Source: an uncultured Mycoplasma sp. (GTDB lineage: Bacteria; Bacillota_I; Bacilli_A; Mycoplasmatales; Metamycoplasmataceae). From it: a stretch of 64,000 bases of DNA. Both the position numbers and the translations under genes were made by a program. The stretch spans positions 47,344 to 111,343 of the forward strand of contig CAMRAC010000004.1 in assembly GCA_947039955.1 (NCBI GenBank). Reading direction: 5' to 3'. Shown one piece after another: positions 1,601 to 60,465 of this stretch (positions are counted from its first letter, which is position 1; each line of letters begins with the position of its first letter). Under the pieces are notes generated by a model. That model saw nothing but the letters and a program-made list of their open reading frames with translations. It had not been told where the DNA came from and made no database searches.

Positions 1601-2467
1601 CTAAGGTTTTACCAGTCCTTCAATTTCAAATGAAGAAATTGTTTCTGCTTCAGTTAATTCTGCAGTGGCAAATAAAGGATTTGAAAGAGTGAAAGTAATT
1701 GTTAATGAAGTATCTTTGATTGTGCTGGGAGTTGCAATAACTGCATAATCTCATCCAGATAACGCTGTTGGAAAAGGTATTTTAGATTTAAGGATACCTT
1801 CAAAATCTATTCTATTTTGAATTAGTTTTGAAGCTTCTGTAGGATTTTTCGAAATAATTGATTTTCTTGCTTGTGGAGTAGATCATCCAAAAAAATCTTT
1901 ATCTAAAAAGTTTCTTATTCATTTTATTTCTAAATCTCTAGATTCTTTATCGCTTGGTGTAATTGGTAATAAAGTTCTAAAGCTCATAGAAAAAACTTCA
2001 GAATTTGAAGGTTCTTGTGTTTCTGTTGGTGAATCAACGATAACAACTTCTGACTTAAATGAAGACTTTAAATCAAAAGTGAATTTAATTGTTCCAAAAG
2101 AAGGTAATGTTGAATTTGGAGAAGCCTCAGCTTTAAAGAACATTTTCTTAGTTGTAGCATCAAGATCATATTCATTGAAAGCGTTAATATTGGCATTAAT
2201 AAAAGGTGTTATTCCCACTATTGGTGTTGCTGATAAAAAGTAATTTTGTGGTGCTTCATTAAATTTTATGATGAAAGAATCAATTGATTCAGGAGTGAAT
2301 ATCTCTGAACCAACACCTTTAGCAAAATTACCTTCTAATTTTTCACGATCAATTGAAATTTTAGCAACTTCTTGAGGAACATTATTTGAACACGAAATTA
2401 AAACTAAAGGCAAGGCCATAGTTGTTATTAATGTTGTTCCAAATAATACTTTTAAACTTTTTGTCAT
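1601..2467 (-). CDS. Lipoprotein (unknown function)
   Basis: The N-terminus MTKSLKVLFGTTLITTMALPLVLISCSNN carries a lipobox. Track ORF 1919-2467 ends at TGA. I checked every in-frame tta/cta down to the TAG at 1601 and found no real stop. Confidence 0.75.
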
Positions 2468-2522
2468 TTTTTCTCCCTTGAATTTTATTTATTAAATTAT
2501 ATACTAAAATATTATCTTAGTT

Positions 2523-3263
2523 TTATAAACTCAAAGTTACTTCTTGTCCGGGACCCATAATTTTCCCATGAATTTCTGACTTTAAATAAATTTTAACTTT
2601 TACAACTTTAGTCACTTGATTGATGCTAGATTCTTCAAAAGAACCAATTCTAAAACCAGGTATCGGAATAAATGTAAATAGTTTTTCTAAATAGTATGGG
2701 GATTCTTCATTATTAAAAGAAATATTATCCTTAAGATCTTTAAATTGAAATAAATCTTTCCCTTCTGCATTTAAGGTGTATGTTGGTTTCATTTTCGAAT
2801 ATGCATCTGTGAATTCTTTAACAACAACTGTTTCTGCTTTAAGAAATTTATCAACAGTAAAGGAGATAATAGATTCTTTTTCTTCACTACCATCAAAGAT
2901 TGGTTTTGGCGTTGGAAGGTATGTAATTGTATTATCTTTGTTTCTTAAGTAAGCACTAAAAGAAGCTGATCCGAATTTATCTTCAATAGTATCAGACTCT
3001 ATAACTAATTTAAATCCCTTTGCCGCTAATTCTTCATTGGTTGGTAATTGATCTTTGAATACTCTTCTAAAGGTAACTGAGTCGTAAATTGATGAAGCAT
3101 AAACATTTTCATTCCCTTTTCAATCTTGTTTATCAATAATATTATTGTAAAATTCATCAACATATACCTGATCAACAGAAGAAGAGCAAGACATCATAAT
3201 AGCAACGGGGCTAACAGTTAATAAAACACTTGATGAAAATAGAGATATTTTTTTTATGTTCAT
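2523..3263 (-). CDS. Lipoprotein (unknown function)
   Basis: ATG at 3263 gives MNIKKISLFSSSVLLTVSPVAIMMSCSSS, which has a lipobox. The frame continues through a TGA (..IDKQDW KGN..) into track ORF 2523-2792. Confidence 0.7.
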
Positions 3264-4432
3264 AATTTTCCTCTTTTCATTACTTGGTTAACTGGAGTTA
3301 TAGGTCTAGGAGTGAAATCAATATTTCCTTGCGCATTTATAATATCGCCAATTTTAACTTTATAAGTTCCAACAATACTCTGGTTATATTTTTTAGAAAA
3401 TATTTCAATATTAATTTCAGTATCATTTGAATAACCTTCTAGAATTATTTCTGGACTAGGAGCAATAACACCAATTCCAAATTCTGATGAGAAATCATCA
3501 TTCATTGAAATTCTTAAGTTTTTGAATAAATCTTGAATATTAATCGGTGTTCCATTTCCTATCAATAAAGTTGGTTTTATGTTTTCAATTAAAAGGAATT
3601 TTAAATCATTTTCAAGATCAAGATACTCCCTGGAAAAAGTATCAATATTAAACGGGTCTAAAGTATAAATGCTTCCTTCTCCAAAAATAATATCCATTTT
3701 AACTATACCAACAATATTTGGCAAGCTATCAACATCTTGAGTTATATCATTAATAATTATTTCGATATCTTGCAAAGCAACAGAGTTAAATTTATTAACC
3801 ACAACAGTAGTAACAAAGTTTTTAAATCTATTAATAAATGCTGTTTTTAACTCAGGAACCATTAACGCAGGAGTTAGTACCATGATGCCTTCGCTATTTT
3901 TAACCAAAACTTTTTCTGTAATATCAAGACTGTGAGATGTTTGGTTAACTCTAATTGAAATATCATTAATTAAATCCGATAAAAATTGATCTTTAAAATA
4001 GACTATATTAACTTCATCTTTAAAAGCTTGTTCAGACATTGCCCCTATTTTAAATGAGTTATTAACTACATTTTCACTTATCATAAAAGAGTATGTACGA
4101 TAAATTGTTGAATCTAATTTCGAAGAAACTTTAACATTGACTTTGTTGTCAACAGAAGCTATTAAAGGAATTTCAAAATTTACAATTTCATAAAGTAATT
4201 CTTCGTTATTCAATTTATCAAAGTTAACTAAGTTCTCTTTTATTTCATTGATGTTTGTATCTTTTGTCAAAGTAATTACAGGAGCAATTTTCTTTTCGGC
4301 AGCTTCATTAACCAAGAACTTTTGTTGAGTAATTTGTTCTGAAGTCAAGGGAGTGTTAGAACATGAAATTAAAGCTATGCTTGGTAATACAATAGCTGAT
4401 ACAACTGCTAAAGGTAAATATTTAAATTTCAT
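3254..4432 (-). CDS. Lipoprotein (unknown function)
   Basis: MKFKYLPLAVVSAIVLPSIALISCSNT carries a lipobox. The track stop at 3260 is TGA; read as Trp, the true TAA is at 3254. The 3' end overlaps the next lipoprotein start. Confidence 0.75.
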
Positions 4433-4434
4433 AA

Positions 4435-5205
4435 TTATATTTTCCTTGCTTCAAAAATCTTGATTGGTAATTCAATTGTCACGATTTCTTCGGGAGTTCC
4501 CTCAGAAGAAGTCCCTAATATAAAATCAAAAATAATTTGATCATTAAAATGACTATTAAAAAGCATATGAATATTTTTTTGATAACCATCAAAAATATTT
4601 TCATTAATCTTTGAACTTGTCAATCTGTCATTTAAAGGTTTTGGATCAGTTGTTAATTCATCAATATTAATTGCTTCTTCTGTAGAAAAAATACCAACAC
4701 CTAGAATTGCATCAGTTGCAAATCTTGAAATATTAAATGTGTTTTCTAAAATTAACCGATTAAGAGTGGTAGTAAGATTTGCAGAATCAACAGAAACAAT
4801 TGTTTTACCTTTTATTTGAGCAATGTCAGAAAACTTTATAGAATAAAAATCAGCAATTTCAGGAGCTATATCTAGAGTTGATATAGAAGTTACTTTGAAT
4901 CAAATATCAAGGTCTTTTTCTCCTAAAATAGGAAGTTCAATTTTGTGTAAATCTATTAAAAAATCATCTGTTGAGTGCTTAGGAGCGACAAATTTACTAA
5001 CTTGCCCTAAATAATCAGATAAAGAAATTTGATCTCCTGTAGGAGTAACACTTAATGTAGGAAGTGGTTTCTTCGCAACTATTTCCTTAATTATTTCTCT
5101 AGCGGCCGTTATTCTGCTTTCATCGTTATTTTGTGAACATGAAATTAACGTTAACGGAAGAATTAACGGTAATGGAGCACCTAAAATAAATAAAGATTTT
5201 TTCAT
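4435..5205 (-). CDS. Lipoprotein (unknown function)
   Basis: AAAGGAG lies upstream of the ATG at 5205. MKKSLFILGAPLPLILPLTLISCSQNN carries a lipobox. Track ORFs 4900-5223 and 4435-4623 share one frame and are joined through TGA. Confidence 0.75.
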
Positions 5206-5292
5206 AAAACAAACTCCTTTCAAACACTAATAATTTATTAATAATTTTATCATTTTTTGAGTATAATTTTAAAAATAAAGTTTAAAAGAACT

Positions 5293-5695: not shown

Positions 5696-6463
5696 TTATT
5701 TTTCTTCTTTTTCAGCCATTATTTTATCAATTTTTTCAGTTGTTTTAAAACTAATTTTTGCCAAAGAATATAAAGCTTTACGACCATAAGTTTTAACAAA
5801 GTCCATTGCAAATTTTTCAACAGTTTCATTTGTACCTAATGGTGTTTTCATATCAAGTTCTTCATCTTGGTCTTCCATCATTTTTAAAAAGTGGTATCTA
5901 CCAATAACTGAAGCTGCAGCAACAGATACGTGTTTTGATTCAGCTTTCTCTAACAACATAACTGGTTTAACAAATGAATCAGCTGTTAATTTTCCACCAA
6001 CTAATGATTCATAATATTTAACAATACTTGCTTCAGTGCTAAATTGATCAATAATAGTCATATCACTTTTAACTTTTAACTTTAATTCAAGATGGTTAAT
6101 TGACTTAATATGTAAAAACATTTTCAATTCATTTGCATTCATATATTTGTTTAAGTTATTGTAACCTTTTTGTGTAAGGTGATTAACCCTGAACACTACA
6201 AGATCTTTCAACATAGGGAAAACTTCAATAATTTTCTTGTCAGTCATTAACTTCGAGTCAGTAACTCCAAGTTGTTTAATTTTTTCAATATTTTCAAATT
6301 CTACAAAAGCAGCACAAGCTACCAATGGAGTTAAGTAATCTCCAACTCCAGTTTCATCTACACCAATAATACTTTTATTATCAAAGATACCATTTGTAAA
6401 CTCTACAAATTTAATAGGTTTTACCTCTATTTTTTTTACTGATTTTGCTACGGGTTTTGCCAT
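5696..6463 (-). CDS. rnhC: Ribonuclease HIII/HII-family protein
   Basis: Motifs GVDETGVGDYLTPLV, LGVTDSKLM, IIDQF and KAESKHVSVAAASVIGR match the RNase HII/HIII catalytic core. Confidence 0.6.
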   Translation of the reverse strand: MAKPVAKSVKKIEVKPIKFVEFTNGIFDNKSIIGVDETGVGDYLTPLVACAAFVEFENIEKIKQLGVTDSKLMTDKKIIEVFPMLKDLVVFRVNHLTQKGYNNLNKYMNANELKMFLHIKSINHLELKLKVKSDMTIIDQFSTEASIVKYYESLVGGKLTADSFVKPVMLLEKAESKHVSVAAASVIGRYHFLKMMEDQDEELDMKTPLGTNETVEKFAMDFVKTYGRKALYSLAKISFKTTEKIDKIMAEKEEK

Positions 6464-6507
6464 TTTTATTCCTTTAAACTTATAAAAAAGTTAATTTCAT
6501 TATATTA

Positions 6508-7395
6508 TTATTTTTCTAAATTGTTAAGAAATTTAATAATAAAGTCTCCAACACCACCTTCTTTGTTAGTTAATTCAGAGACAAATGTTGCCGATTTTTT
6601 AACGAGAGGATCTGCATTTGCCATAGCAACAGAATTTTCTACAACTTTTAACATTGATATATCATTGAATCCATCTCCAATAGCAACGGTGTTAGTAACT
6701 TTAATGTCATAAAATCTCAATAATAATGAAATAACTTTAGCTTTTGAAACACCTAAAGCTGTAATGTCGAAAATTTTTGAACTACTCCCACTTTTACTTC
6801 AGTAATTAAATTCTGCCAAATCTCCATACATAATGTCAAGGTATCTTTTTAAATCATGAGCACTTTTAATGTGACTGTTTTTATCCTTCTTCATTTCTTC
6901 AAAATTAATATCCAAAATCACACTAATAGGTTTTAGAGGAATTCTTGCCAAATCAATTCCTTCAACAAATTTGGGAAGTTTGTTGAATCCAAATATTTGT
7001 TCTAGTTCTGGATTTCTATGTTGTAATTGGACTCATCCCGGTCCTTCTATTGCAAAGTTCTTTGTAATTTTTTTCAAGTACTCATCTCCAACAATGTAAA
7101 GCATTTCGTTTAAATTAACATATCTAATGTAATCAATAAAAAAAGGATCACAAGGATTATGAATGTGAGCACCATTTATATTTCCAACAATAGTATCTAA
7201 TTCTAATTTTTCATATATCTCTTTTGTAGAGACTCATGGTCTACCTGTAACAATTGAAACGATGTGTCCCTGTTCTCTTGCCATTTTAATACCTTCAATA
7301 GTTCTTGGGTGAATTTCATTATTAAGGGAATCCGATAATACAGTTCCATCTAAATCTATTGCAAATAAATATCTTTCTTTTTTTGACATGTTCAT
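6508..7395 (-). CDS. Cof-type HAD-IIB phosphatase
   Basis: ATG at 7395 gives MNMSKKKERYLFAIDLDGTVL... The protein continues SIVTGRPW... and ends ...AIGDGFNDISMLKVVENSVAMANA. Fragments are joined through several TGA codons in one frame (888 nt). Confidence 0.8.
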
Positions 7396-7469
7396 CACTC
7401 TCCTTTAATAAATTAACGTATAATAATTATAAAGAATAAAATGAATCATAACCATATATAATTAATTTT

Positions 7470-7991
7470 ATGATAAACATTATTTTATACCAACCAGAGA
7501 TACCTCCTAACACAGGAAACATAATTAGAACTTGCTATGCAACGAATGCTATTTTGCACATCATCAAACCATTATCTTTTGATTTATTCCACCCGTTAAT
7601 TAAACGCGCAGCTGCCGGACGTTCTATTGAGGATATTGAATATCATGTTTATGAGAACTATGATGAGTTCAATAAAATACATGGAGATAAAAACATTTTC
7701 TATATTTCCAGATATGGATTAAAAAACTATGCTGAACATGATTACAAAACTCCTCAAGATGTTTGAGTAATGTTTGGTAGAGAATCTACAGGAATTCCTA
7801 AAGAGATATTGAAAGAGAATGTTGATAAATGTTTTCGTATTCCAATGGCTGAAAAATGTCGTAGTTTAAATTTAGCAAATAGCGTTAACTTAGTGGCCTA
7901 TGAAATATTAAGACAAAATGATTTTCAAGACTTATCATTGTTTGAAGTCCAAAAAGGTAAAAATTATTTATTGGAGGATGACAATGAGTAA
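7470..7991 (+). CDS. trmL: tRNA (cytidine/uridine-2'-O)-methyltransferase TrmL (SpoU family)
   Basis: MINIILYQPEIPPNTGNIIRTC... continues to ...W VMFGRESTGIPKEIL...IPM....RSLNLANSV. The two track ORFs are joined by one TGA. Confidence 0.8.
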
Positions 7992-8727
7992 TAAAGAATT
8001 TTTAATTGAAATGCATCGAGATTATTTAACAAAGAATGAAATTGTTGAATACAAAAAATTAATGCAAAAAAAATACCGTCATGAAAAAGGTATTTATATT
8101 ATTGAAGGTAAGCATCTTGTTGAAGAAGCTTTGAAAGCGAATATTGTTGAAACAATAATTTCAACAGAAAAGTTTTTTGACTTTGAAGATACTTTGTATT
8201 GCCGTGAAAGTGAAATCAAAAAACTCTCTACTACAACTACTCCTCAAAATATTCTTGCAATTTGTAAAATGATTAAACCAAAACCACTTGGATCAAATAT
8301 TTTATTTTTAAATAAAATTAATGATCCGGGAAACCTAGGAACTTTAATTAGAACCGCTAAAGCATTTGGATATGATGATATTGTTTTTGAAGGTGTTGAT
8401 TTATATAACTCCAAAGTACTAAGATCTGCTCAAGGTGCAGTTTTTACAACTAACTGTTTTAATGTAGAGGATTCGGCTTCTTGAATTAAAGATAGAAAAA
8501 ATGAGGGTTACGTTATTTACGGAGCTTTATTAAGTAAAGATTCTAAAGAATTTGACAAAGTAGAAAAGAGTGAAAAGAATATTATTGTTTTAGGTAATGA
8601 AGCAACTGGTATTGAATTCCCTGTGGAAATGTTAGTAGATGAAAAAATCTATATACCAATTAAATATGAGTCATTAAATGTTGCTGTAGCTGGCGGAATA
8701 ATCCTTAACCAATTTAAAAAGAACTAA
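7984..8727 (+). CDS. TrmH-family RNA 2'-O-methyltransferase
   Basis: ATG at 7984. Motifs seen are ..IIEGKHLVEEAL.., ..NDPGNLGTLIRTAKAFG.., ..LGNEATGI.. and ..ESLNVAVAGGI. One internal TGA; TAA at 8725. Confidence 0.8.
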
Positions 8728-9632
8728 TTCTTTTTAGAAAAAACTAATTCATTATATTGGAATATATCATTTCTTGAGAATTTATATTTATAAACTCCTT
8801 CAGTTCCTGAGTTTTTAGCTTTAGAAAAATTATTATTAAAAATTCCTTCTTTAATAAGTTTTTCCTTAACATCTTCATCAACAAATATAAAGTTTTCAAA
8901 AGATACCAACATTCCTAATATTTCCATATTTTTTAAATGAAAAATATTTTCATCGGTTTTAGCTGAAGAAATAAAAATATTAAAGTACTCTCAACTTTCT
9001 GATTCACTACTTCATAGTTGTGGGCTTAAGGCTGATAGTCTATGCACTATTAACGGCATTAGTGATGAAATTGTCATACCAACTTCTAAAGTTTTTTTTA
9101 TTGTGAAAGTATCCGAAAGTAGGAATTGAAATTTTAATTCAGTTCTTGAAAAATTTTCATTACTAATGTCAAATGAAACAAGTTCTTTGAATATCTTTAA
9201 GTACTCTACTAAATAATTTCCAAAAACATTTAAAATATCTGGTTGCATTTTCTTGACAGAAATAATAATGAAGCTATATTCTTTTTCTTGGTAAGTGTTA
9301 ATTTTATTGTTTAAAAATAAATCGAAATTTATAGGACAATTTTCATCACTAATTTTTGATGTTGATAAAATAGAATAACTATAGTCAGGATTTTTAGTGA
9401 TGATGTACTTGTTACTATCTATCTCGAACATTGATTGACTATCTCTAATTTTAATTGTTTCTAAATTAGCAATAAACATTTTTTCTTCATTTTGATTATA
9501 AAGTTCTGTATCTCAAGCAAAAGGTGATTCTGTTTTATATTGATTTTTAATAATTAATTTATTGGCAAAATCAAAAGAGTATTCTTCTTTACCATATGTT
9601 TTTTCTCATAATTCTATAGATTTGTTTTCCAT
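8724..9632 (-). CDS. Hypothetical protein with a degenerate HNH-like N-terminus
   Basis: ATG at 9632 gives MENKSIELW EKTYGKEEYSFDFANKLIIKNQYKTESPFAW DTELY...IANLETIKIRDSQ. The three track fragments share one frame (909 nt), with a true TAG at 8724. Confidence 0.6.
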
Positions 9633-9695
9633 AATTTTCCCAACGTTGTTTAATCTTTACTTTAAAGATTAAACACTTTTATATTATTCCTCTTA

Positions 9696-10529
9696 TTAAT
9701 CTCAAATGATATTTGTAAAATTCAAGATTTGTTGCCTAATTATTTTTAGACCCTTATTAACATCTGGTTCACCATTTTTAATAAGCAGATTTCTCTTCTT
9801 AGTAAACTTAACTAGCTCGTTATATTTGCCAACTTTATCTTCTTGATATTCAATTCCAATTTCTTGAAATTTTTCAGGAGCATATTTCTGCATAGTTTTA
9901 CTTATTGCATAATAGAAATCTAAATCACTAACTACTTCAGCTTTGATCGCTCCAGTGGCTACAAGTTTTAAAGCATCTTTTTGATTGATTAACTTTGGCA
10001 TTAAAATTCCTGGAGTATCTAGAAGTTGAATGTCTCCAGCTGCAATTCACTGTAAAGATCTTGTTGTTCCAGCAAAGTTGGCAACCTTTGTTTTCTTGGC
10101 TTGAGCTAATAAGTTAATCATCGTTGATTTTCCGACGTTCGGCATCCCAACAACAAAACATCTTAGCCTTGGTTTTAATAAACCTTTCTTGGCATCTTTT
10201 TCTCTTTTTTTAACCAATACTTGTTCAAGCTTATTTAAGATTTTTTTTCTTGATTGTGTTTTCTTTAAATTAACAACAACCGACATATCATAATCATTAT
10301 TAAATCTGGGCAGTATTTGATTTAATTTATCAACATTTGTATAATCACTTTTCGTAAAAACAAACAATCTTGGTTTTCTCGGACCAATTTTATCAAACTC
10401 ATCATTGTATGAAGACAGAGGAACTCTACCATCCAAAAGAACAATAAAACAATCAACAATATCTTGCTTATCTTGTATGTCGTTAAACGCCTTTGCCATA
10501 TGGCCAGGGAATCAGTTAATTAAATCCAT
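9696..10529 (-). CDS. rbgA: Ribosome biogenesis GTPase A (YlqF/RbgA)
   Basis: MDLINW FPGHMAKA is followed by circularly permuted GTPase motifs: FTKSD, then VVGMPNVGKSTMIN, then LLDTPGIL. Confidence 0.85.
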
Positions 10530-19879: not shown

Positions 19880-20173
19880 AATATTTTCCTTTTAGTTTGT
19901 TATTTTCTTCCTAGTACTTCAAAACAACTAGCATCTCATCTTCATAAGACACACCCAATTGAATCCGTAATAGTGCGTATTTTTTTCATTTTTTTATTTA
20001 ATGATTTAAATATCTAAAATAATTTTATCATAATATAAGAGGAATTTCCTATAAATATATAAGGTATTTAACTATAGTTTTTGGAAAATAAATTTTTTAC
20101 TTAATGCAAAATACCTGATTTTTACTGTTATTTCTTCAGCAATCTACTAAATCAGTTTATTATATTAAGTACT

Positions 20174-21466
20174 ATGAAACAAAAATATATTGATTCGGAA
20201 AACAAACCAAGTATAAATAAAAAATTAAATGTGTTCGAAACATTCTCCGGGATAGGTTCGCAGCACAAAGCCTTTAAGAACGCTTTTGATGAAAGTAAAT
20301 TTGAGATTGTGGCTACCTCGGAATGAGAAATTTACGCAATTATAGCTTATGATGCCATTCACCATGGTCCTGTAAAACAAAAGTCCTTAAATACTCTTTT
20401 AAATAGGGGGGGGGGGATTGTTTCGGTTGAAGACTTATCCACATTCCTTTCTCAATATTCTTTTTCAAAAAATGGTGAAAAAGAAACTGATATAAATAAA
20501 GTTATTAATAAAGAATTAGAACTTGCTCAAAGATTAGCGGTTGCAATGATTAGAAATAAAAATATTGGTAGTATTTTAGATTTTGATAAGATAAAAATCA
20601 GAAATAACATTAATTTATTAACTTATTCTTTTCCTTGTCAAGATTTATCAATAGCAAATATGGGGCGCGGAACCGGTATGGCTAAAGGTGCTGAAAATCG
20701 TTCAGGACTACTTTGAAAAGTGTCTAATATTTTAGAATCATACACTCCTGAAGAACTTCCTGAATTTTTGTTGTTGGAAAATGTACCCAATATGCTTTCA
20801 CAAAATCATAAAAAAGATTATGAAGAATGAGTAAATTATCTTGATTCAAAAGGTTATAAAACAGTCACAGAAATTTTGGATGCAAGACATTATGGAATTC
20901 CGCAAAGCAGAAGAAGAGTTTTTGCGATTTCTTTCAATATAAATAAATTAAATATCAATGATTTTGAAGATATTAAAACAAGGTATAAAAAACACTTAAA
21001 AGATATGGAAGATAATTTTATTTATGAAAAACCAAAAAAAGAAGTTAATAAAGTTTTAAACAAATCTTTTTTATCTCTTGATAAACATGAAGACGAAGCT
21101 TATTCTTGCTTAATGAAAGATACCCCATCTAGAGTAAAAATGGTCCAAGACAACAAAGATTTGTTAGATCCTAATTTGACTTACTTTAGAACTTTAACTA
21201 AAAAGCAGGACAGAAATCCTAATGTTGGTTTTGTTACAACTAACTTTTATAAGGAAGATTATTTAAAAGAAAGATTTATTACTCCTAGAGAAGCTTATAA
21301 AATTATGGGCTTTACAGATAAAGATTTTGAAAATACAAAAAATGATTTATATAAATTTTCAAAGGAAAAATATTATAGCCAAGCAGGAAATTCAATTGTT
21401 GTTAATGTTTTGGAAGCGATATTCAAATTTGTAATGGAGGTGTGAGATGAAAAAAATAGGAAATAA
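20174..21466 (+). CDS. DNA (cytosine-5)-methyltransferase (Dcm family)
   Basis: Motif I is VFETFSGIGSQ, motif IV is SFPCQDLS, motif VI is LLENVPN, motif VIII is QSRRRVFAIS and motif X is AGNSIVVNVL. Read with TGA as Trp, the frame is open from 20174 to TAA at 21464 (430 aa). Confidence 0.9.
20406..20416 (+). repeat. G11 homopolymer inside the methyltransferase coding sequence
   Basis: aaataGGGGGGGGGGGattg encodes N-R-G-G-G-I and is in frame in this sequence. Confidence 0.95.
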
Positions 21467-21977
21467 ATTTTCAAAGATAGGGACAAACCCGCATAAATAT
21501 GTTGAAAATTATAGATTATTATTTTTGAACATAGGCAAACAAGAAATATTAAAAATCAGGAGAGAAGATTTCTCAATAACGCACAACGGAGTAGAAGTCA
21601 AGAGTTTTGGAAGTGATGCAACATTTAGACAAAATATAGATTGTTGAGTGGGCTTAGGTCTTTTCATAAAAAAAGATGATAAACTAGTTAAAGTTTTTGA
21701 AAATATGAATGAAAGTGATTTTTATGAATATATCAGAGGAATTATATTGGTACAGTCAAACAATGAAAAAATAAATGTTTATAGAGACACAATAATAATA
21801 AAATTAATGAATTTTTTAGGGCTAGAAACTATTGAAAAATACAACCTTTCTTGCAGGACTAAATGTATAGTAAAAAAAGATATTGATGAAGAAACTGGTA
21901 AATTTGAAAAAGAATTGCTGAATGATAAAATGCTAAAAAGTATTTTGAAAATAATATGGGAGAATAAATATGAATAA
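21447..21977 (+). CDS. Hypothetical 176-aa protein (weak PD-ExK-like motif)
   Basis: The ATG at 21447 lies inside the last 20 nt of the methyltransferase gene. Track ORFs 21447-21647 and 21648-21977 are joined by one TGA. The segment ..RREDFSITHNGVEVKSF.. gives D41-x8-E50-x-K52. Confidence 0.6.
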
Positions 21978-23856
21978 ATTAACTAAAAAGATAGACGAGA
22001 AAGATTCAGATATAACCATTGACAAAGCTTTATTAATAGAGTGACTTGATATGGAAGGTAAAGTAATTATTATTCCAATTTACCAAAGAGGTTATTCATG
22101 AGAAGTTGGGCATATTGAGACATTATTTGAAGATATTGTGAACAGAATGGAAGATGATTCTTCTCACTATTTTGGAATAATTGCCGGAAAAAATATAAGT
22201 GGTTCAGGTCCGGGTAAAAAAAATATAGTCAAAATAATTGATGGTCAACAAAGATTGACTAGTTCTTTTTTATTTTTTTGTGCAATTAGGGACATTATAT
22301 TAGAAGAAGAAATAGGCAATATTATTGATTATAAAACTTTATCAAAAATATTAAAAATAAATTCAAAAGAAAAAATTGAAGAATACTTCTATAATCCTGG
22401 AGGTCAAACAGACTTAAATGAAGCATTTATAAAAATTTTAAAAGGTGATTTAAAAGATATAAAGAAGAAGAATAATTTTTATGAAAATTATTTGAAATTT
22501 AAAGAATTAATTCAAAATAAACAATTTAATTTTGAAGAATTAAATCAATTAATGAACACATTTTTATATAAATTTGAAATTGCTAACATATTTTTTAAAA
22601 CAGATAAAATTTCAAATAAGAAAGAAATGGAAATTTTTGAAAACTTAAATTCAAAAGGCAAGGAATTAAGTTCTGAAGATTTAATAAAAAACTTTATTTT
22701 TAATCTTTGTTCCGATGAATTACTTGTAAAACACGATGAAGATCAAATAACTCTTATTTTTCACTCATCTATTACAGATGAATTGGGAGAAGGTAAATTG
22801 ACTGGTAAATTTTACAAAAGCTTAATCCAATATAATATAGGTACTGAGTTCCAGGACAATAGACAAATTCAATTAACTGAATTCAAAAAAGTGGTTGAAA
22901 ATATATTTAATATTGATATGAATGAAGAAATAAAGACAATAAAAGAATATAAAAAATTATTAAATGAAATTAAAGATTATGCAAAAATTTTCTATGATAT
23001 TTCTAAAGAAAATAGAAAAAAAATAGTTTCTTGATTGGGTGTGGAAAAAATAATCATCCTTTGTAATGAAGAAAGTAAATTAAATCTATTTGCCGGATTA
23101 ACATATTTGATGTTTGAATTTTTTAAAAGACAAGATAAATATGATGTCAACGTCCGTCTTCCTGAAGCAACTCAAAAAGATATTAAAAGAATTTACCTAA
23201 CAATTATGAAAGCAATAACTAAAAACTGAGTTATTACAAGGCGTGGTGATTCTGGTTTTAGAAGGATGATTTTAAAATCTATATATTTAGTAAGACAAGA
23301 TTTTTTGAATGATTTAAAAATTACACTTCAAACAATAGGAGAGAAATTAAAAAAATATATTGCTGACGGATTAAATAGTGATGAAGAATTTAGGTCATCT
23401 ATTATAAATAATAGTGATGCACACAAATCAATTACATGACTTCTTATATTAACAGAATGAGAAATGAGTGATTGATTAAATTCTGGACAATATATTGATT
23501 ATAAATCTCCTTCTATTGAACATATATTACCTAAAAACTCTGACCTTTGAGAAGAAGAAATGATACAAAATTCAGAATATAATATGGAAGAATTTAGAAA
23601 AAACAAAGAAAGAAATTTAGAACAATTTGGTAATTATTTTATACTAAACAAAGAGAAGAACTCCTCTGTAGGCAATATTATTTTTTCAAAAAAACAAGAA
23701 GGGTATAAAACAAACACATCACCTTTATATAACAATCCTAAATATCCTGATATTGATATTTCTAGAAAAACATCATGAGGATTTAAAGATATTCAAAAAC
23801 GTACTGACAAACTTATAAACTATATTTGTGAAAGCGTTATTAAAGACAACAATTAA
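21970..23856 (+). CDS. DUF262 + DUF1524 protein (GmrSD-like type IV restriction nuclease family)
   Basis: N-terminal motifs are IIPIYQRGYSW, KIIDGQQRLTS and FENLNSKGKELSSEDLIKN. C-terminal motifs are SIEHILPKN...FGNYFILNKEKNSSVGN. Four track fragments share one frame (1887 nt, 628 aa) with only TGA between them. Confidence 0.85.
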
Positions 23857-23887
23857 ATCGTTGTAAATAATCCTATTAAAGATAAGG

Positions 23888-25573
23888 TTATTTTTTTTGT
23901 TGTATCTTATAATCTGCTAATTGTTCATCAGTTACTTTAGATGGAGATTCTGACATTACATCAATTCCATTGGCATTTTTAGGGAAGGCGATAACATCTC
24001 TAATTGATTTTGATTTTGATAAAATCATTAAGATTCGGTCAACACCGAAAGAAATCCCTCCATGTGGTGGTGCTCCATATTTAAAGGCTTCTAAAAAGAA
24101 TCCGAATTGTGAAGATATTTGCTCTTCTGTTAATTGTAAAGATTTAAAGATTTGAGTTTGTAATTCACGATCATTGATTCTGATTGATCCTGAAGATAGT
24201 TCATAACCATTTAAAACTAAGTCATACGCTCTTGCATTTACTTTAAGTGGTTCTTTATCTAAATACTTTAAAGTTTCAGTTGTTGGATGGGTAAATGGGT
24301 GATGCATTGAAGATATTCTTCCATCAATCTCTTCGAATAGTGGTCAATCAACAATTCAAACGAATTTATATTCATCTTCATTTGCATAATTAAATAGTTC
24401 ATTTGCTTTGGTTCTAATAGCACCTAATGATTGATTAACATTTTCTAATTGATCAGCTACAAATATTAACGTTGAATTAGTAATTTTAAATTTCTTAATA
24501 ACTTCATTCAATTCGTTAGTAATAATAGTGTTTAAATTATTCTCATTAAATTTCCCATCAGCAATTTTAATGGCGATGATTTTTTCTGCTTTATTTTTTA
24601 AAGCAATTTCTTCAAGAACTTTAATTTCTTTTGAAGATAGTGACTGTTCAAAGTTAAGCATTTTGATTGATGCTTTTTGGAAGATTTCTGACTTAACATT
24701 TTTGAAGATATCCGAAACATCTAAAAGTTTTAAATCAAACCTTAAGTCTGGTTTATCACAACCATAAGTATTCATTGCATGTTGGAATGACATTCTTTCG
24801 AATTTAGGTTTTAATTTATAACCAATAACATCCATGATTGCAATTCAAAGATTTTCCATTACTGAAAATAATTCTTCTTCATCGATAAAAGACATTTCCA
24901 CATCAAGTTGAGTAAATTCTGGTTGACGATCTTTTCTCATATCTTCATCACGGAAAGCTCTTGCTACTTGGAAGTATCTTTCAAATCCTGAAATCATTAA
25001 AAGTTGTTTATATATTTGTGGTGATTGTGGCAAGGCGAAAAATTTTCCATCTGTTCTTGTTGGTACCAAATAATCTCTTGCTCCTTCTGGAGTTGATTTA
25101 GATAAAATTGGTGTTTCGATTTCAATAAATCCATTGTCATCAAAAAAGTTTCTTGCAGCTCTTAAAACCTTATGTCTCAATAATAAATTATCATACATTT
25201 TAGGTCTTCTTAAATCTAAGTAACGATGCTTTAATCTAGTATCTTCCTTAGCATTTAAATCATCTTTAATTTCAAAAGGTAACTCATCTGATTTACTTAA
25301 GATTTCATAATTAGTAACATTAATTTCATAGTTACCTGTTGGCATATTAGGATTAGGTGATTTACGAGTTACCAAAATTCCTTCGACTTTTAAAACAGAC
25401 TCTTTTGTAAAGTCGATTTTATCCGGGAAAACTAGTTGTACAAAACCAGTTCTATCTCTAAAATCAACAAAAGAAATTTGACCCATCTTTCTAATGTTGG
25501 AAACTCAACCATAAAGGGTTACTTGGTCGTTTTCTTTTAATTGTAATACATCTATGTTATTTGTTTTTTTCAT
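23888..25573 (-). CDS. aspS: Aspartate--tRNA ligase
   Basis: MKKTNNIDVLQLKENDQVTLYGW VSNIRKMGQISFVDFRDRTG... Further motifs are FRDEDMRKDRQPEFTQLD and GGISFGVDRILM. 1686 nt in one frame. Confidence 0.95.
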
Positions 25574-41234: not shown

Positions 41235-42281
41235 TTAGTTACTTGAAGGAAGTTTTTTTACTTTGTTAGTAAAAATTTGTTCTGGAGTTATTCCGCCATT
41301 GGTTTCAGTTGTTAATCCACCTGGGAAAGTTGGGATATTTGCTCCAAAATTATTAAGAGCAAAAGCTTCTAAACCAATGCTTTTTATTTGACTAGGTGTT
41401 GGTCATACTATTGATGATATATTGTTTTGTAAGAATGCGTCAATTCCAATACTTTCCAAGTTTATCAAATCATGTAAATCTAATTCTCCAGATAATTTAT
41501 TATTATAAAAAGCACTATTACCAATTGATTTAATTTTGGAAAAGTTATTTCAAAGAATAGATGTAATGGAATTTTTCCCAAAAGCACTTGGTCCAATATT
41601 TTCTAACGAACTCAAAGAAACAAAGCTCAATTCTGTAAGTTCGTTTGTATTGAATGCCGCAGTACCAATAGATTTAATCTTATTTTCTCTTTCAGGTCAA
41701 TAAATTTTTGAAATTGAATTTTGTCCAAAAGAATAATCAGAAATAATTTCAAGATTAATTAAACCTCTTAAATCAACAGAAGTAAGTCCTATACTAGAAA
41801 AAGCACCTTGCTCAATGACTTTTAACTTACTTAATCCACTTAAATTAAGATCAATATTTAGTAATTTTGGTAAGTCGAAACCAAATGCTCAACTACCAAT
41901 ATATTCCAAGTTTGTTAAATGCGATAAATCTCAAGGAACAGAGGTTTCTCCTGTGTTCGCAACAGGAGAAACTATATTCTGAAAAGCTCAACTCCCTATT
42001 TTTACTAATGTTTTAGGCAAAGTTAGTCCGTTGATTTGTTGATCCGCAAATGCAGCATTAGCAATTTCTGTAATCTTAACTCCATTATATTCTTCTTTAA
42101 TTTCTAATTTTTCAGGGTGAGTTCCTTCATCGGCATAACCCATAACAACACCTTTTGAACTTATTTCAAGACCTTCAGCTTCAAAATAAGTAGTTGTTTC
42201 ATTTGAACTACATGATATGGTAATTAATGGAATTATTCCAATCGGTAATAATGCTAATGGTAATAGTTTTTTAGTATTCAT
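41235..42281 (-). CDS. BspA-like leucine-rich-repeat lipoprotein, copy 1
   Basis: AGGAG lies 8 nt before the ATG at 42281. MNTKKLLPLALLPIGIIPLITISCSS carries a lipobox. Repeats follow of the type L..L..IG..AF....L (for example LSHLTNLEYIGSW AFG, LSSLENIGPSAFG). Confidence 0.85.
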
Positions 42282-42557
42282 TTTATTTCTCCTTAACACT
42301 TACTCTTTGATTTCTTAAACTAAATAGTTTTAGTTAGTTGGAGGAAGCTTTTTTACTTTGTTAGTAAAAATTTGTTCTGGGGTTATTCCGCCATTGGTTT
42401 CAGTTGTTAATCCGTCTGGGAAAGTTGGGATATTTAGACCAAAGTTATTAACTGCAAAAGCACCTAAACCAATGCTGTTTATTTGACTTGGGGTTGGTCA
42501 TTGAATTGATGATATATCATTAAATCTAAATGAGTTAATTCCAATACTTTTTAAATT
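42201..42557. repeat. 357-bp block nearly identical to 43446-43802
   Basis: Hand alignment shows 2 mismatches. The block spans one copy's signal-peptide coding region, the intergenic spacer, and the last roughly 230 nt of the upstream copy. Confidence 0.9.
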
Positions 42558-43526
42558 GATTAAAGTTGATAAATTCAACTCTCCAGTAATTGTGTTAGAT
42601 TCAAATGCAGCCTCACCTATAGATGTAACTTTATTATCAATAGGTCATTTGATTGATGTTATTTGATTATGAGCAAACACATTTTTATCAATTTTTTCCA
42701 AATTTATTAAGTCGTGTAAATCTAATTCTCCAGATAATTTATTTTCATAAAATGCTCCATCACCAATTGTTTTGATTTTAGAAAAATTATTTCAAAGAAT
42801 AGATGTGATTAAATTTCCAGCAAAAGCACTAGAACCTATACTTTCTAGCAAATCAAGTGAAACAAAATTTAATTCTGTAAGTTGGTTTCTAAGAAAAGCT
42901 GCAGAACCAATAGATTTAATTTTATTATCTTCTTCAGGTCAATAAATTTTTGAAATTAAATTGTCAGAAAAAGTCCATTCTTTTATCTCTTCAAGATTAA
43001 TCAAACCTCTTAAATCAACAGAAGTAAGTCCTATGCCTGAAAAAGCACTATTATTAATTGCTTTTAATTTACTCAATCCACTTAAATCAAGATCAAGATT
43101 TAATTTTTTTGGATTAATAACTCCAAAACTAAATGCTGAATTACCAATATATTCTAGGTTTGTTAAATGTGATAAATCTCAAGGCAAGGGAGCTTCTCCG
43201 GTGTTTGCAACAGGAGATTCTATATTTTGAAAAGCTCAATTCCCTATTTTTACTAATGTTTTTGGCAAGATTAATCCATTAATCTTTTCATCCGAAAATG
43301 CATCAGAATGAATTTCTGTAATAGTAACGCCATTATATTCTTCTTTAATTTCTAGTGGTCCAACATGGTTTTTAGATTCTATAAACCCATATACCACACC
43401 TTTATAATCTATTTCAAGGCCTTCAGCTTCAAAAGTACCTGTTTGATTTGAACTACATGATATGGTAATTAATGGAATTATTCCAATTGGTAATAATGCT
43501 AATGGTAATAATTTTTTAGTATTCAT
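42330..43526 (-). CDS. BspA-like leucine-rich-repeat lipoprotein, copy 2
   Basis: It has the same signal peptide and LRR pattern as copy 1. The frame is open from 43526 to TAA at 42330 with TGA read as Trp. Confidence 0.85.
42831..43033. repeat. 203-bp block identical to 44076-44278
   Basis: Hand alignment found no mismatch. The block is internal LRR coding sequence of copies 2 and 3. Confidence 0.85.
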
Positions 43527-43802
43527 TTTATTTCTCCTTAACACTTACTCTTTGATTTCTTAAACTAAATAGTTTTAGTTAGTTGGAGGAAGCTTTTTTA
43601 CTTTGTTAGTAAAAATTTGTTCTGGGGTTATTCCGCCATTGGTTTCAGTTGTTAATCCGTCTGGGAAAGTTGGGATATTTAGACCAAAGTTATTAACTGC
43701 AAAAGCACCTAAACCAATGCTGTTTATTTGACTTGGGGTTGGTCATTGAATTGATGATATATCATTAAATCTAAATGAGTTAATTCCAATACTTTTTAAA
43801 TT
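43446..43802. repeat. Partner of 42201-42557
   Basis: See 42201-42557. Confidence 0.9.
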
Positions 43803-44777
43803 TGTTAAAGCTAATAAATTTAATTCCCCAGCAATTGCATTAGATTCAAAGGCAGACTCACCTATAGATGAAATTTTACTATTAATAGGTCATATTATTG
43901 ATGATATTTTATTTTTAGAAAATACACCTTCTTCAACACTTTCCAAGTTTATCAAATCATGTAAATCTAATTCTCCAAATAATTCATTAGCGGCAAAGGC
44001 GCTCTTTCCAATTGTTTTAATTTTGGAAAAGTTATTCCAAAGAATAGATGTAATGGAATTTCCTGCAAAAGCATTAGAACCTATACTTTCTAGCAAATCA
44101 AGTGAAACAAAATTTAATTCTGTAAGTTGGTTTCTAAGAAAAGCTGCAGAACCAATAGATTTAATTTTATTATCTTCTTCAGGTCAATAAATTTTTGAAA
44201 TTAAATTGTCAGAAAAAGTCCATTCTTTTATCTCTTCAAGATTAATCAAACCTCTTAAATCAACAGAAGTAAGTCCTAAACCAGAAAAAACACTATCATC
44301 AATAACTTTTAATTTGCTTAATCCACTTAAATTAAGATCAAGATTTAATTTTTTTGCATTATAGCTTCCACGGTCAAAAACACCTCTACCAATGTATTCT
44401 AGATTTGTTAAATGTGATAAATCTCAAGGAACAGAAGTTTCTCCTGTGTTAGCAACAGGAGATTTTATGCCTTCAAAAGCTCAACTCGCTATTTTCACTA
44501 ATGTTTTAGGTAAAATTAAACCTTCTATTTGCTCGCCTCGAAAAGCAGATTGAGCAATTTTCGTAATAATAACACCATTATATTCTTCTTTAATTTCAAG
44601 TGGTCCAATGTGTGTGTTTTTTGAAACAAAACCCATTATTTCACCATCAGACCCTATTTTTAAACCTTCCGCTTCAAATGTATATATGTTTTCTGGTTGT
44701 GTTGAACATGATATAGTTATCAATGGAATAATTCCAATCGGTAATAATGCTAATGGCAATAGTTTTTTAGTATTCAT
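43575..44777 (-). CDS. BspA-like leucine-rich-repeat lipoprotein, copy 3
   Basis: It has the same signal peptide and LRR pattern as copies 1 and 2. The ATG at 44777 lies 1 nt after the stop of the upstream 850-aa gene. Confidence 0.85.
44076..44278. repeat. Partner of 42831-43033
   Basis: See 42831-43033. Confidence 0.85.
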
Positions 44778-44778
44778 T

Positions 44779-47331
44779 TTATTTCTCCTTAACACTTATT
44801 CTCTGAGCTTCTAATTTGATTATGTCTCTTAGATATAATCAAGCATCTTTATAAGTTAAAAAATGGTGTGTTTTATTATTATAACCTAATTCATATATAA
44901 AATTTGTTTCAAAATCTAACAATGTATATGTTTCATTGTCATTTTTATAATAAATTTTATTAGGATCATTTTTAACAATCAATGTACGATAAATATTATC
45001 TAAAATTGTTTGTTCAGAATCATACATAGCATCTGAAGTTGTTTCCATTGCTAAATCATCACTTAATTGAATTCCAGGATTAATAACATTGCCAAATAAG
45101 TCATAAATTATAATAACTTTAGCTGGATTAATTTTATTACTTGTTAACTTAACAGATTCCAGTTCTGGCGTATTATAAATTATTTTTTTATTATCACTAG
45201 TGCTAGATAAAGATTCATTAAAGTCATATACCAAAGAAATGTATTCTCCATAATGCAATTCTGATGTTTTTCTATTTATTCCTGAAGCAACAGGATCTGT
45301 TAAAACCAAAATATTATTTTCATTATCTATCAATTTATTTTTAATGTTTTCAGGCAATACATTTGAATATTTTGTTTTTAACTCACTTAAATTATCATTA
45401 TAAGAACTAAGAGCATAAACAAGATTATCATATTTATGTGGGACTTCATCTTTTGTAGAAGTCAAGGTTCCTTGATGTTCTGTTTCTGTAAAAGAAAATA
45501 ATTTGTCTGCCATTATCTTTGTTTTTACAAAAGCGTTATTGCTAGAAATATTTTTACCATCTCCTGAAATATTATTTGAAATATTTGATAAATTTTCTGA
45601 ATTATAAGTTTCATAAAATTTATCTAAATATTGTTTGTAAAAAAATGTTTCTGGTAATGCAAAATTTTCAAACACAAAAGAATCATTAATTTTAAAAATA
45701 GGACTTTTGTTATATGTCAAAAAGTAATTCATTTTTTTATATGTTAATAGAAACTGATCTATTATAAATTTATTATTATCAATTGCTTTATACTCATTAT
45801 CATATTGATTTTTTATATCTCTGAAAATAAAACTAAGTTTTTCAACCATTTTTAATTCATTATTAGAACTATATTTATTATATTCAACATTAAAATATTT
45901 AGAATTAATTTCACTAAACATCATTGTATCTGTCATTGATTCAATAATATTGTTTTTAAATTGTTCCTCAATTAGTGTGGTTTCAATTTGCTTGGTTGAA
46001 GTTTCTGGTTTTCATTTATCCATCAATTTTATTTTTATTGATTCTACAAATTTTGCTTCATTTTCTAATTGAAAATTAACGTCAAAATCTATTTGATTTC
46101 CTTTTTTTCCATTTACAGAGTGACTTCCTGGTTGCAATATTTGTGTGTTTGTATTTGTAACAGTCCAAGGTCCATCATCCCCTGTAGAAAAAAGTTTAAA
46201 TTTTGCTGTTTTTCTAAGGAAATTTGTAAAGATTAAATTATCTGCCTGTTTGACAGGGCCTGCATACTGAACTACTCCCTCTACACCATTTTCTTTTATT
46301 CATGTTTTTCTATTTAAAAAAACATCAAATTTATTAAGATTTGCATAATCTACCTCTTTAAAAGTCATTGTGTCTAATCTTTCTCTACCTTTAACAGTCT
46401 TTGTAGTCAAGTCAGGAAATTCTGTTCCAGAAATTTTTTCTAAATTATATGCAAGATCATCATGAGTGTAATTTAATTTCACTGTTGCTTTAAAGACACT
46501 TTCCATAAAAGTTTCTGTCATAGCTGTCGCAAAATCATCAGTAATTTCATTATAAAAATCTGAAATATTTTTTGTAAATAAATTATTTAACCATGAGGTA
46601 TCTGAAAGAGCTACAAAATTGCCATCATCTTTGTTTTTTGCAATATTTAGCATAGGCATCATCCCAAAAGTATTATTTTTGTTATTAGGGTCTTTAACTT
46701 GCTCTTTTGCATTTCTTAAAGTTATTTCTTTCATTTTATTAATATCATCTTTATTTAAAGGATTTATTTTAACAGTTGTATTTTTTTCTTCATCATAAAC
46801 TTCATAGAAAACAGTTTCATCAACCTTGATACCCTTAAGGATTTCTCTTTGTGCTTCAGAGTATGAAGAGTGTAAAACACCTTTGGTATCTTGATATTTG
46901 TATTTGACAAGTCCTTCATTAACAAAAGATTTTTTTGCTTTGTTAAAATCTTGTTCATAACCACCAAAGGCATTGACATAAGCTGAAGAAATTTTGTTTT
47001 GATCAAATTTCTTTAGTTCATTAATATTTAATTGATTGGTTTGATGGTCAAAAATTGCATTTCCAGCATCTCCGTAATATAAATCATCATTAATATATTT
47101 GTTATTATTAACTAATTCATTAGTAATGTCGTCCAATGAGTCGTAATACTTGTTATTAAATAAATATTTAAACTCATTGTTGCCATTATTGTTGGCATTA
47201 AGGGCACTTTCTTCTTGATTAATGATTGAAACCATCGAACCTTGAGCAGCAACTACAGAAATAGCTGCAACAATAGAAGAAGTAAAGAGTAATCCTGAAC
47301 CTATTAGTTTAAATTTGTTTTTATTTTTCAT
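44779..47331 (-). CDS. Large membrane-anchored/secreted protein, 850 aa (unknown family)
   Basis: Track ORFs 46300-47331 and 44839-45936 lie in one frame. I translated 45937-46303 and 44779-44841 codon by codon and found only TGA. The N-terminus MKNKNKFKLIGSGLLFTSSIVAAISVVAAQG is a signal or anchor with no lipobox. Confidence 0.75.
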
Positions 47332-59876: not shown

Positions 59877-60465
59877 CGGTAAAACCTTAAAAACTTCCGT
59901 TATTTGCGAAGGAGAAACGGACAAATGATTTCTTAACTTTTTGAAAACTAATTTATATCAAACAAGGCAACCAGTCTGCAAAGAACACTCTCAAGTGATT
60001 TACGGAACAATTAATTTAGCAAATATAAAAAAGAAGATTGAACGTGATTGTTGCAGAGCGTTTTATTTTTTTGATAAAGATGAAATAAGAGAAGGTATGT
60101 TGCAAAAGTTGAAAGATAAAATAAAGGAACAAGGAGATACTTGAATATTTTTTAACCCACAAATGGAATTGTGTTTATTAGCAATATTTGAGAAACACCA
60201 CGATTATAAACTAGACAAAAAAACACTTGAACAAAAACTTACAAAACATATTAATAATAATAATATTTACAAAGATAAATATGATCATAAGCCAGAAATA
60301 TTACAAAAAATATTATTACATCTTAAAGAAATAGTTAAAGATGACAAAAACGATTATACATTATTGCAATTTGAAGAAAATTTACAACATTATAATTCCA
60401 ATAAGTATTTACACACAAACTTGATAGAATATATAAATCACTTAAAAATGAAAAGAGAGAACTAA
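59863..60465 (+). CDS. RloB-like (Toprim-like) protein, 200 aa
   Basis: The ATG at 59863 overlaps the ATPase 3' end by 14 nt. The N-terminal TSVICEGETDKW FLNF matches the RloB motif (CEGE.TE..YF). Three fragments are joined by TGA. Confidence 0.7.

Follow-up and report, generated by a model that had tools for sequence, protein, structure and literature searches.

The stretch of DNA analysed here, 64 kb of a contig from an uncultured Mycoplasma sp. (CAMRAC010000004.1, positions 47,344 to 111,343; the whole stretch is called the window below), carries an island of three overlapping genes on the plus strand between rpsB and aspS. They encode a C5-cytosine DNA methyltransferase (M), a small protein (S) and a GmrSD-superfamily protein with a nucleoside triphosphatase (NTPase) and a His-Me nuclease domain (G); their positions, and those of the features discussed below, are collected in Table 1. 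Open reading frames (ORFs) were called with translation table 4 (TGA = Trp), and the coordinates of the cassette hold only under this table, with which those of the original prediction are exact. With table 11, M, S and G as well as the flanking rpsB, tsf and aspS are all fragmented at TGA codons into a mosaic of short ORFs, whereas code 4 yields clean genes throughout the window, which has a GC content of 27%. M and S overlap by 20 nt and S and G by 8 nt (ATGAATAA), and a GGAGGT sequence is found 5 nt ahead of the ATG of S. The cassette is flanked by rpsB and tsf upstream and by aspS and hisS downstream. The flanks were checked via the Pfam annotation of L024, one of the numbered loci fetched for comparison, the island of which is sequence-identical; it shows Ribosomal_S2 and EF-Ts upstream and AspRS downstream.

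While the predicted location between rpsB and aspS stands, its description as an insertion goes one step further. The opposite strand orientation, the lower GC content (0.21-0.26 versus ~0.29-0.33) and the different locations of the cassette in other lineages suggest that the island was inserted there. The intergenic region upstream of M presumably holds the promoter of the operon. It contains a promoter-like match (20005-20034); such sites occur at chance frequency in the AT-rich DNA of the window (31 found versus 29.6 expected), and the scan for promoters and terminators returned no terminators.

Table 1. Positions of the cassette genes and of their motifs in the window
Feature	Position	Strand	Description
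Intergenic region	19880..20173	+	Upstream of M, divergent from rpsB; sole non-coding stretch ahead of the overlapping trio
M	20174..21466	+	430 aa; C5-cytosine DNA methyltransferase
G11 homopolymer	20406..20416	+	Inside M, codons 78-81 ('RGGG'); slipped-strand phase-variation switch, ON in the window
TLTKKQDRNPNVG	21191..21229	+	Motif in the target recognition domain of M; common to the M genes of the system
S	21447..21977	+	176 aa; small Mollicutes-restricted family, fold not recognisable
IGTNP	21477..21491	+	Invariant motif of S
FRQNIDCW	21624..21647	+	Invariant motif of S
G	21970..23856	+	628 aa; GmrSD-superfamily NTPase and His-Me nuclease
DGQQR	22240..22254	+	DUF262 (ParB-like NTPase) domain of G, residues 91-95; invariant in the 31-member subfamily alignment
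EHILP (EHxxP)	23518..23532	+	DUF1524 His-Me nuclease domain of G, residues 517-521

In agreement with the identities first proposed for M and G, both proteins match the expected families above the cut-offs. M matches PF00145 (E = 1.5e-50, 172.9 bits, cut-off 22) and TIGR00675 (E = 2.8e-41, 142.3 bits, cut-off 100.65) and has the complete canonical set of C5-methyltransferase motifs, with FSGIG (motif I) at residues 24-28, FPCQ (IV) at 153-156, ENV (VI) at 202-204, QSRRR (VIII) at 244-248 and GNS (X) at 405-407. Its nearest solved structure, aligned over the full length (E = 1.5e-39, query residues 10-421 with chain residues 4-389), is 4dkj, which is M.MpeI, the CpG methylase of Mycoplasma penetrans (PMC10899764). 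G matches GmrSD_N (E = 4e-33, 115.7 bits, cut-off 33.2) with residues 25-244 and GmrSD_C (E = 4.8e-13, 49.6 bits, cut-off 23) with residues 470-616. It keeps 85 of the 87 positions conserved in its family, and its EHxxP motif is the signature of the DUF1524 nuclease (PMC12707154).

The original prediction of a coupled, non-canonical triplet that joins a 5-methylcytosine (m5C) methyltransferase to a GmrSD-type protein is strongly supported. The finding that it had named as a refutation, homologues of the three genes that never co-occur elsewhere, is clearly contradicted, as they were found together in every lineage examined. In all 15 independent Mollicutes lineages with readable flanks, M (or a methyltransferase-like gene), S and G follow each other on one strand, at identities of S to the window protein from 85% down to ~20%. 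Across these lineages, M and S overlap by 0-20 nt and S and G by 8-17 nt. Two further lineages show a variant order, so that a methyltransferase or methyltransferase-like gene is located in the same operon as G in 17 of 17 lineages. All carriers of the cassette are low-GC organisms using code 4. In Spiroplasma tabanidicola, M comes first, followed by G and by a 220-aa protein distantly homologous to S (24.7-26 bits), which was the lone extra match when the 988 ORFs of all fetched loci were scanned with the S profile. In L022, M is followed by a 403-aa fusion of an S-like region with HNH_2, an unknown 317-aa protein (X) and G; the 403-aa protein is not significant against the S profile by hidden Markov model, and its N-terminus was called S-like from inspection of the motifs and from an analogous fusion in the database protein P0213. 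These two variant architectures suggest that the linkage is functional rather than positional.

In one clade (L004/5, L015, L016 and L017) the ~420-aa methyltransferase is replaced by a compact protein of 261-276 aa with the motif 'SPPCESWSG...ENP'. With 20.6 bits against PF00145 (cut-off 22), a PADLOC MTase_II match (4.9e-5) and no sequence match in the PDB, this protein is probably methyltransferase-like, with a weak resemblance to C5-methyltransferases. The compact gene of L016 loses its reading frame at a short A-tract right after the ATG (~5220-5240), and the S gene of L017 contains a frameshift (3458-3968); these breaks may reflect decay, additional sites of switching or errors in the assemblies.

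M, S and G co-diverge across the lineages, as judged from their identities. Between the window and its sister species, dN/dS amounts to 0.14 for M, 0.17 for S and 0.23 for G, with 0.07-0.10 for the flanking housekeeping genes, and all three genes are under purifying selection. The S family (71 clusters) and the G subfamily (~33 clusters) are of matching size, while the M family is huge, with 5,628 matches at E <= 1e-30 in Mollicutes and Firmicutes. The cassette resides in at least four different neighbourhoods, several of which contain other defence genes: rpsB/aspS; an SLFN-type helicase with NOV_C and an ADP-ribosyl toxin; AbiEii; a Sau3AI/MutH-like restriction-modification pair; and additional GmrSD paralogues.

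The content of the islands varies even among close relatives. L006 has an additional 415-aa gene with a weak DUF5677 match between G and aspS (8460-9707). A second, convergent GmrSD paralogue of 694-719 aa lies directly downstream of G in L007 (4448-6607), L008 (4039-6198) and L015 (8902-11043), on the minus strand in each case, and has no S-like or methyltransferase partner of its own. Just upstream of M-S-G and on the opposite strand, L012 (1537-4514) and L013 (1535-4534, minus strand) carry a divergent second GmrSD-like gene (554-563 aa) together with a C5-methyltransferase-like fragment (203-233 aa). A gene with a NOV_C domain adjoins the cassette in two unrelated lineages, L018 and L003 (1654-2649), and in L018 a MutH/Sau3AI-like gene and a second C5-methyltransferase adjoin it as well (758-1624 and 5892-8133 for the neighbours in L018).

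The original prediction placed the operon behind a phase-variable tract; the tract in fact sits inside M, after motif I and ahead of the catalytic core. No other run of seven or more G or C occurs in the 64 kb. In the window the tract is in frame, and a change by one base would truncate M at ~106 aa. The island of L024, an independent metagenome assembly, shows zero substitutions over window positions 19880-23900, the sole difference being a tract of G10 instead of G11, which frameshifts M (OFF) and leaves S and G unaltered. Phase variation of M is directly shown by these two tract lengths on an otherwise identical island. In the sister species, one sample has G9 and an M split into 131 and 306 aa (OFF), and another has G8 and an intact M (ON); L006 likewise has G9 and a split M. 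Hence, intact S and G accompany an M in the OFF state in L024, L001/L010 and L006, as would be expected if S-G is harmless in cells without M or its mark. In more distant lineages, (AG)10-25 in the 5' part of M takes the place of the poly-G, and the cultured Metamycoplasma sualvi Mayfield carries an in-frame (AG)12. Overall, M contains a simple-sequence repeat, poly-G or (AG)n, in most lineages and none in the remaining ones. The unlike repeat types at an equivalent place in M argue that switchability has been selected repeatedly. ON/OFF switching by such repeats is known from CpG methyltransferases of M. agalactiae (poly(G) of 6-11 G) and from M. pulmonis and M. crocodyli (poly(GA)) (PMC9465063).

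The subfamily of G, with ~33 clusters, is sharply delimited: its members score at least 139 bits, compared to at most 92 bits for generic DUF262/DUF1524 proteins. Most relatives are 780-820 aa long and start with an all-alpha N-terminal domain of ~175 aa of the DUF4145/HEPN type; PF13643 reaches 24.1 bits (cut-off 23.1) in the G of L003 and less in the other relatives. According to the alignment, this domain is gone in frame just after 'MNKL' in the G of the window and of L006. The G of L021 begins straight at the DUF262 domain, and the subfamily members P0042 (637 aa) and P0053 (626 aa) are equally short. In PADLOC, HEC-06 is among the best matches of G (3e-34); the SspE models reach only ~1e-14, on the N-terminal domain, and the type IV model mREase_IV only 3e-10. 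A phmmer search of PDB sequences gave no match. For the fold search, a full-length model of the 807-aa archetype P0030 was used (predicted local distance difference test, pLDDT, 83). It retrieved four significant matches from the PDB and no others at E < 1, namely two chains of DndI (9jfl; E = 1.2e-12, template modelling (TM) scores of 0.42/0.53 over 673 columns) and SspE (7drs and 7drr; E = 1e-11 to 1e-10). The ATPase of DndI is stimulated by phosphorothioate, so that self DNA is left (PMC11662687), and SspE is licensed by phosphorothioate recognition and GTP hydrolysis (PMC13251355).

S remained without a match in Pfam (E up to 0.1), PADLOC and NCBIfam. For its family, a word-seeded search gave 29 clusters, and 71 representative clusters emerged when 1.84 billion proteins were searched exhaustively with a profile. 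With few exceptions, the members stand alone and are 165-190 aa long. The AlphaFold (AF2) model, for which the database protein P0001 with 99% identity to the window protein served as query, is confident (pLDDT 89.9, predicted TM score 0.85). Nevertheless, Foldseek found no significant neighbour in the PDB or in BFVD (best E ~0.2, 0.22 in the PDB; TM score <= 0.3), and no PD-(D/E)xK, HNH, GIY-YIG or PLD-like structure of the PDB was among the neighbours. The invariant residues form an N-terminal element 'F..(I/V)GTNP.KY' and a helix with a hairpin, 'S..T.RQN.D.W...G ... K'. From their polar R/Q/N character, they may form a DNA-contacting surface. They contain no conserved acidic or histidine catalytic set in beta-strands, and S shows no signature of a nuclease. 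In P0213, the N-terminal half of S is fused to an HNH_2 nuclease (PF13391, 5.4e-10). This fusion implies that S itself lacks a nuclease and fits a recognition or adaptor module serving one, and we predict that S is the DNA-recognition or adaptor partner of G. An assignment of S as a Vsr protein, a controller protein or a type II nuclease was rejected, as there is no family match and no fold match in the PDB or BFVD. A relationship to DpdG was also dismissed; the lone match, to NF041064 (E = 0.0012, 18 bits versus a cut-off of 80), was taken as noise.

The target of M is possibly CG, given the relationship to M.MpeI. CG recognition by M.MpeI involves Gln141 and the loops 292-309 and 315-329 with Phe302, Glu305 and Ala323 (PMC10899764). 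M departs from M.MpeI in these elements: Ala/Asn is found opposite Gln141, and the segment aligned to recognition loop 2 differs (TLTKKQDRNPNVG versus GPTLTASGANSRIKI in M.MpeI), which leaves a CG specificity of M unproven. The motif in this segment is instead shared within the system. It is kept in the M of L003, L018, L021, L022 and L023, with the consensus T(L/V/I)T(K/T)(K/R)QDR(N/H)PN(V/A)G across the M genes. In the 64-kb window CpG is depleted (observed/expected 0.51), with 1.05 for GpC and 1.13 for CpA/TpG; the CpG value reported for M. agalactiae is the same, a match that is not diagnostic. CpG depletion aside, the representation of short palindromes in the 64 kb, a length that gives too little power, showed no standout target. 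After CGCG, the most under-represented 4-bp palindromes over the whole window are GATC (0.65) and CATG (0.70).

Three findings, namely the strict linkage of M, S and G, the fold neighbours of G and the intact S and G of the M-OFF genotypes, together lead us to favour, with somewhat more confidence than doubt, the reading of M-S-G as a modification-coupled restriction system. In this reading, self DNA would be marked by m5C, and S-G would depend on M or on the mark of M for discrimination. The original prediction had listed, among several options, a three-component system with the GmrSD-like protein as restriction module and host m5C as the mark of self, and this option fits the evidence best. 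For its third option, M as a shield against the nuclease of another cell, we found evidence in neither direction.

Several observations weigh against this interpretation. GmrSD-family proteins are best known as modification-dependent type IV enzymes; those characterised so far, GmrSD and BrxU, depend on modification (PMC12707154). The M family is mostly found without S-G, which would allow an independent epigenetic role of M, and the M.MpeI-like CpG methyltransferases of Mollicutes are described as orphan and phase-variable, with an unknown role (PMC9465063). The G of the window does not have the DUF4145 domain of the archetype. BrxU, a type IV GmrSD enzyme of solved structure, was not retrieved in the fold search with the P0030 model, perhaps as a technical artefact; hence, the proximity to DndI and SspE should not be over-read. 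A promoter-like site ~40 nt upstream of G (21904-21931) makes an independent expression of S and G possible, and both genes are preceded by Shine-Dalgarno-like sequences of their own. These sequences, in turn, add weight to the observation of intact S and G next to a silenced M. Finally, homopolymer length differences in short-read assemblies can in principle be artefacts; three OFF cases that are independent of each other, and what has been published on such tracts in M. agalactiae (PMC9465063), argue that the differences are real.

The alternative that survives best holds that two functions are stacked at the locus. M would be an orphan-like, phase-variable and possibly CpG-specific methyltransferase with the role of an epigenetic switch (phasevarion) or of a host-directed effector, and S-G an ordinary type IV nuclease against foreign hypermodified DNA that is blind to the m5C of M. 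The known dependence of GmrSD and BrxU on modified DNA (PMC12707154) and the description of M.MpeI-like enzymes as orphan, phase-variable methyltransferases (PMC9465063) are in line with this explanation, as are the size of the M family, which far exceeds those of S and G, the M-OFF genotypes with intact S-G, the separate ribosome-binding sites of S and G and the clustering of GmrSD paralogues in the cassette islands. We nevertheless consider it rather unlikely. Stacked functions predict neither the strict, overlapping M-S-G linkage in 15 of 15 deeply diverged lineages nor the retention of a methyltransferase-like gene where its type was swapped for the compact form. All three components were kept after the change of gene order in Spiroplasma, the co-divergence of M, S and G would be left unexplained, and the fold neighbours of G are modification-coupled effectors and not type IV enzymes.

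Much less support is left for M and S as a classical type II pair, an option that the original prediction had also put forward. In this case, the methylation by M would block S, a small endonuclease with sequence specificity, and G would be a separate type IV enzyme. A small ORF overlapping the end of a methyltransferase gene is a common type II layout, and type II endonucleases are so diverse in sequence that the missing family matches of S are not decisive. The confident model of S, however, has no neighbour with a nuclease fold in the PDB, a conserved catalytic set of acidic residues or histidines is missing from its invariant positions, and the fusions of its domain to HNH imply that S lacks a nuclease of its own. 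Furthermore, S is always tied to G by the 8-17 nt overlap, and in Spiroplasma it comes after G and not after M. An autonomous type II nuclease would also be lethal to its own cell in the M-OFF genotypes with intact S. We regard this explanation as very improbable.

Hardly credible, finally, is S-G as a Vsr-analogous repair module that nicks T:G mismatches arising by deamination at the sites of M. In its favour, the methyltransferase stop overlapping the next start mirrors the dcm-vsr layout of E. coli, where vsr follows dcm with an overlap, the repair repertoires of Mollicutes are reduced, and the prediction for the nuclease is a His-Me enzyme of the nickase type. Against it, S has no Vsr match in Pfam and no Vsr structure among its Foldseek matches. 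G, a large protein with NTPase and nuclease domains, comes from a defence superfamily, has neighbours typical of defence islands and resembles antiphage effectors in its fold. CpG, moreover, is still strongly depleted (0.51) with an excess of CpA/TpG, unlike what efficient repair of CG-directed m5C damage would leave.

For a modification-coupled system, the following mechanism may be proposed. M would methylate the C5 of cytosines at host target sites, possibly CG, and thereby write the mark of self. G would act as effector and nick or cut DNA as an NTP-driven His-Me (HNH-like) enzyme, and S would be a small DNA-recognition or adaptor subunit, kept at a fixed stoichiometry with G via the conserved stop/start overlap. 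S-G may discriminate by the presence of the mark, as DndI and SspE do, or may require M itself, as in type I and type III systems. Incoming unmarked DNA would then be cut, while marked host DNA would be spared, and slippage in the G-tract of M would silence the system safely, without killing the cell.

M-S-G is known so far only from Mollicutes and looks previously undescribed; we found no description of a triplet of m5C methyltransferase, small protein and GmrSD-like protein in the papers searched. More specifically, and only tentatively, it may be the first methylation-based counterpart of the phosphorothioate-sensing Ssp/DndI systems, with G, aided by S as a reader, sensing the m5C (possibly CpG) written by M. 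If so, the 'orphan' CpG methyltransferases of Mollicutes (M.SssI/M.MpeI family) would gain a defensive function and an ancestral context, S would define a new m5C- or CpG-reading protein fold, and the idea of a mark-reading effector would extend from phosphorothioate to ordinary m5C. Methyltransferases like M.MpeI and M.SssI are widely used tools with an unknown natural role, and the presence of relatives in a nuclease operon suggests that the solitary enzymes are remnants of such systems. A GmrSD subfamily that is hard-wired to a cytosine methyltransferase also means that the usual annotation as type IV can be wrong in direction. S, conserved and confidently modelled without a structural relative, is a candidate for a new DNA or m5C recognition module. 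In minimal genomes, a system that is switched ON and OFF could shape the horizontal gene transfer and the transformability of mycoplasmas, and Metamycoplasma sualvi Mayfield, as a cultured carrier, makes it testable.

Elsewhere in the window, a gene for a 394-aa AAA_21 ATPase (PF13304, 1.3e-20; also SMC_N) overlaps a 201-aa ORF without a family (58692-60465, plus strand); the pair looks like a two-gene defence candidate of an ATPase and a partner. At 62628-63998 (minus strand), a partial ORF that extends past the end of the window weakly resembles the last part of GmrSD_N (E = 0.006) and contains a His-Me-like motif 'DDHLIP...N'. It is probably a second, unrelated DUF262/DUF1524 gene and has no S-like partner. 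Two clusters on the minus strand look like typical surface-lipoprotein families of mycoplasmas, one with three tandem paralogues of identical signal-peptide/lipobox N-termini (VLRRNKMNTKKLLPLALLPIGIIPLITISCS; 41235-44795) and a second with four lipoprotein-like genes (1601-5223).

Among known systems, SspABCD-SspE and IscS-DndBCDE-DndI share with M-S-G an effector in which a helical linker joins a DUF262 NTPase to a DUF1524 His-Me nuclease, and the genetic coupling of this effector to a module that marks host DNA. In the Ssp and Dnd systems, the reading of the self mark controls the NTPase and the nuclease of the effector (PMC11662687, PMC13251355). In contrast, the modification module of M-S-G is a single C5-cytosine methyltransferase and not a sulphur-insertion machinery, and none of the fetched loci has an annotated Dnd or Ssp family. 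Furthermore, the modification gene undergoes phase variation here, the obligatory S has no counterpart in the Ssp and Dnd systems, most members of the G subfamily carry the N-terminal DUF4145/HEPN-like domain, and the sequence similarity of the effectors is low.

GmrSD, BrxU and HEC-06 resemble G in the combination of GmrSD_N and GmrSD_C, in the DGQQR and EHxxP motifs and in their location in defence islands. These enzymes, however, stand alone without a cognate methyltransferase and attack modified DNA, whereas the G subfamily is always coupled to a methyltransferase and to S; the defining trait of type IV, a nuclease without a cognate methyltransferase, does not apply to G. M, in turn, resembles M.MpeI, M.SssI and the CpG methyltransferase of M. 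agalactiae in its full-length alignment to M.MpeI and in the poly-G between motif I and the catalytic core. Unlike these enzymes, which are regarded as orphans, it is the first gene of an operon that contains a nuclease.

The arrangement of a repeat inside a leading methylase gene with a nuclease downstream is shared with phase-variable type III and type I restriction-modification systems such as MmyCI of Mycoplasma mycoides, and the (AG)12 of M.MmyCI (PMC3498834) parallels that in the M of M. sualvi. In such systems, restriction requires the methylase, and its OFF state is therefore tolerated. The order of methylase, small subunit and NTPase-nuclease also resembles hsdM-hsdS-hsdR. Differences are found in all three components, as M is a C5-cytosine enzyme where those systems have the N6-adenine Mod or HsdM, S bears no relation to HsdS, and G has no superfamily 2 (SF2) helicase or Res domain.

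A further comparison is offered by the LlaJI type, the name given to McrBC-like type IV machinery that cuts unmodified sites and is accompanied by methyltransferases. Its nuclease is an McrBC GTPase with PD-(D/E)xK and not a DUF262 protein with a His-Me domain, and an S-like component is absent. To our knowledge, LlaJI-type systems are also not phase-variable. What they share with the direction of discrimination proposed for M-S-G is the principle, as type IV hardware acting on unmodified DNA when paired with methyltransferases has a precedent (PMC12707154).

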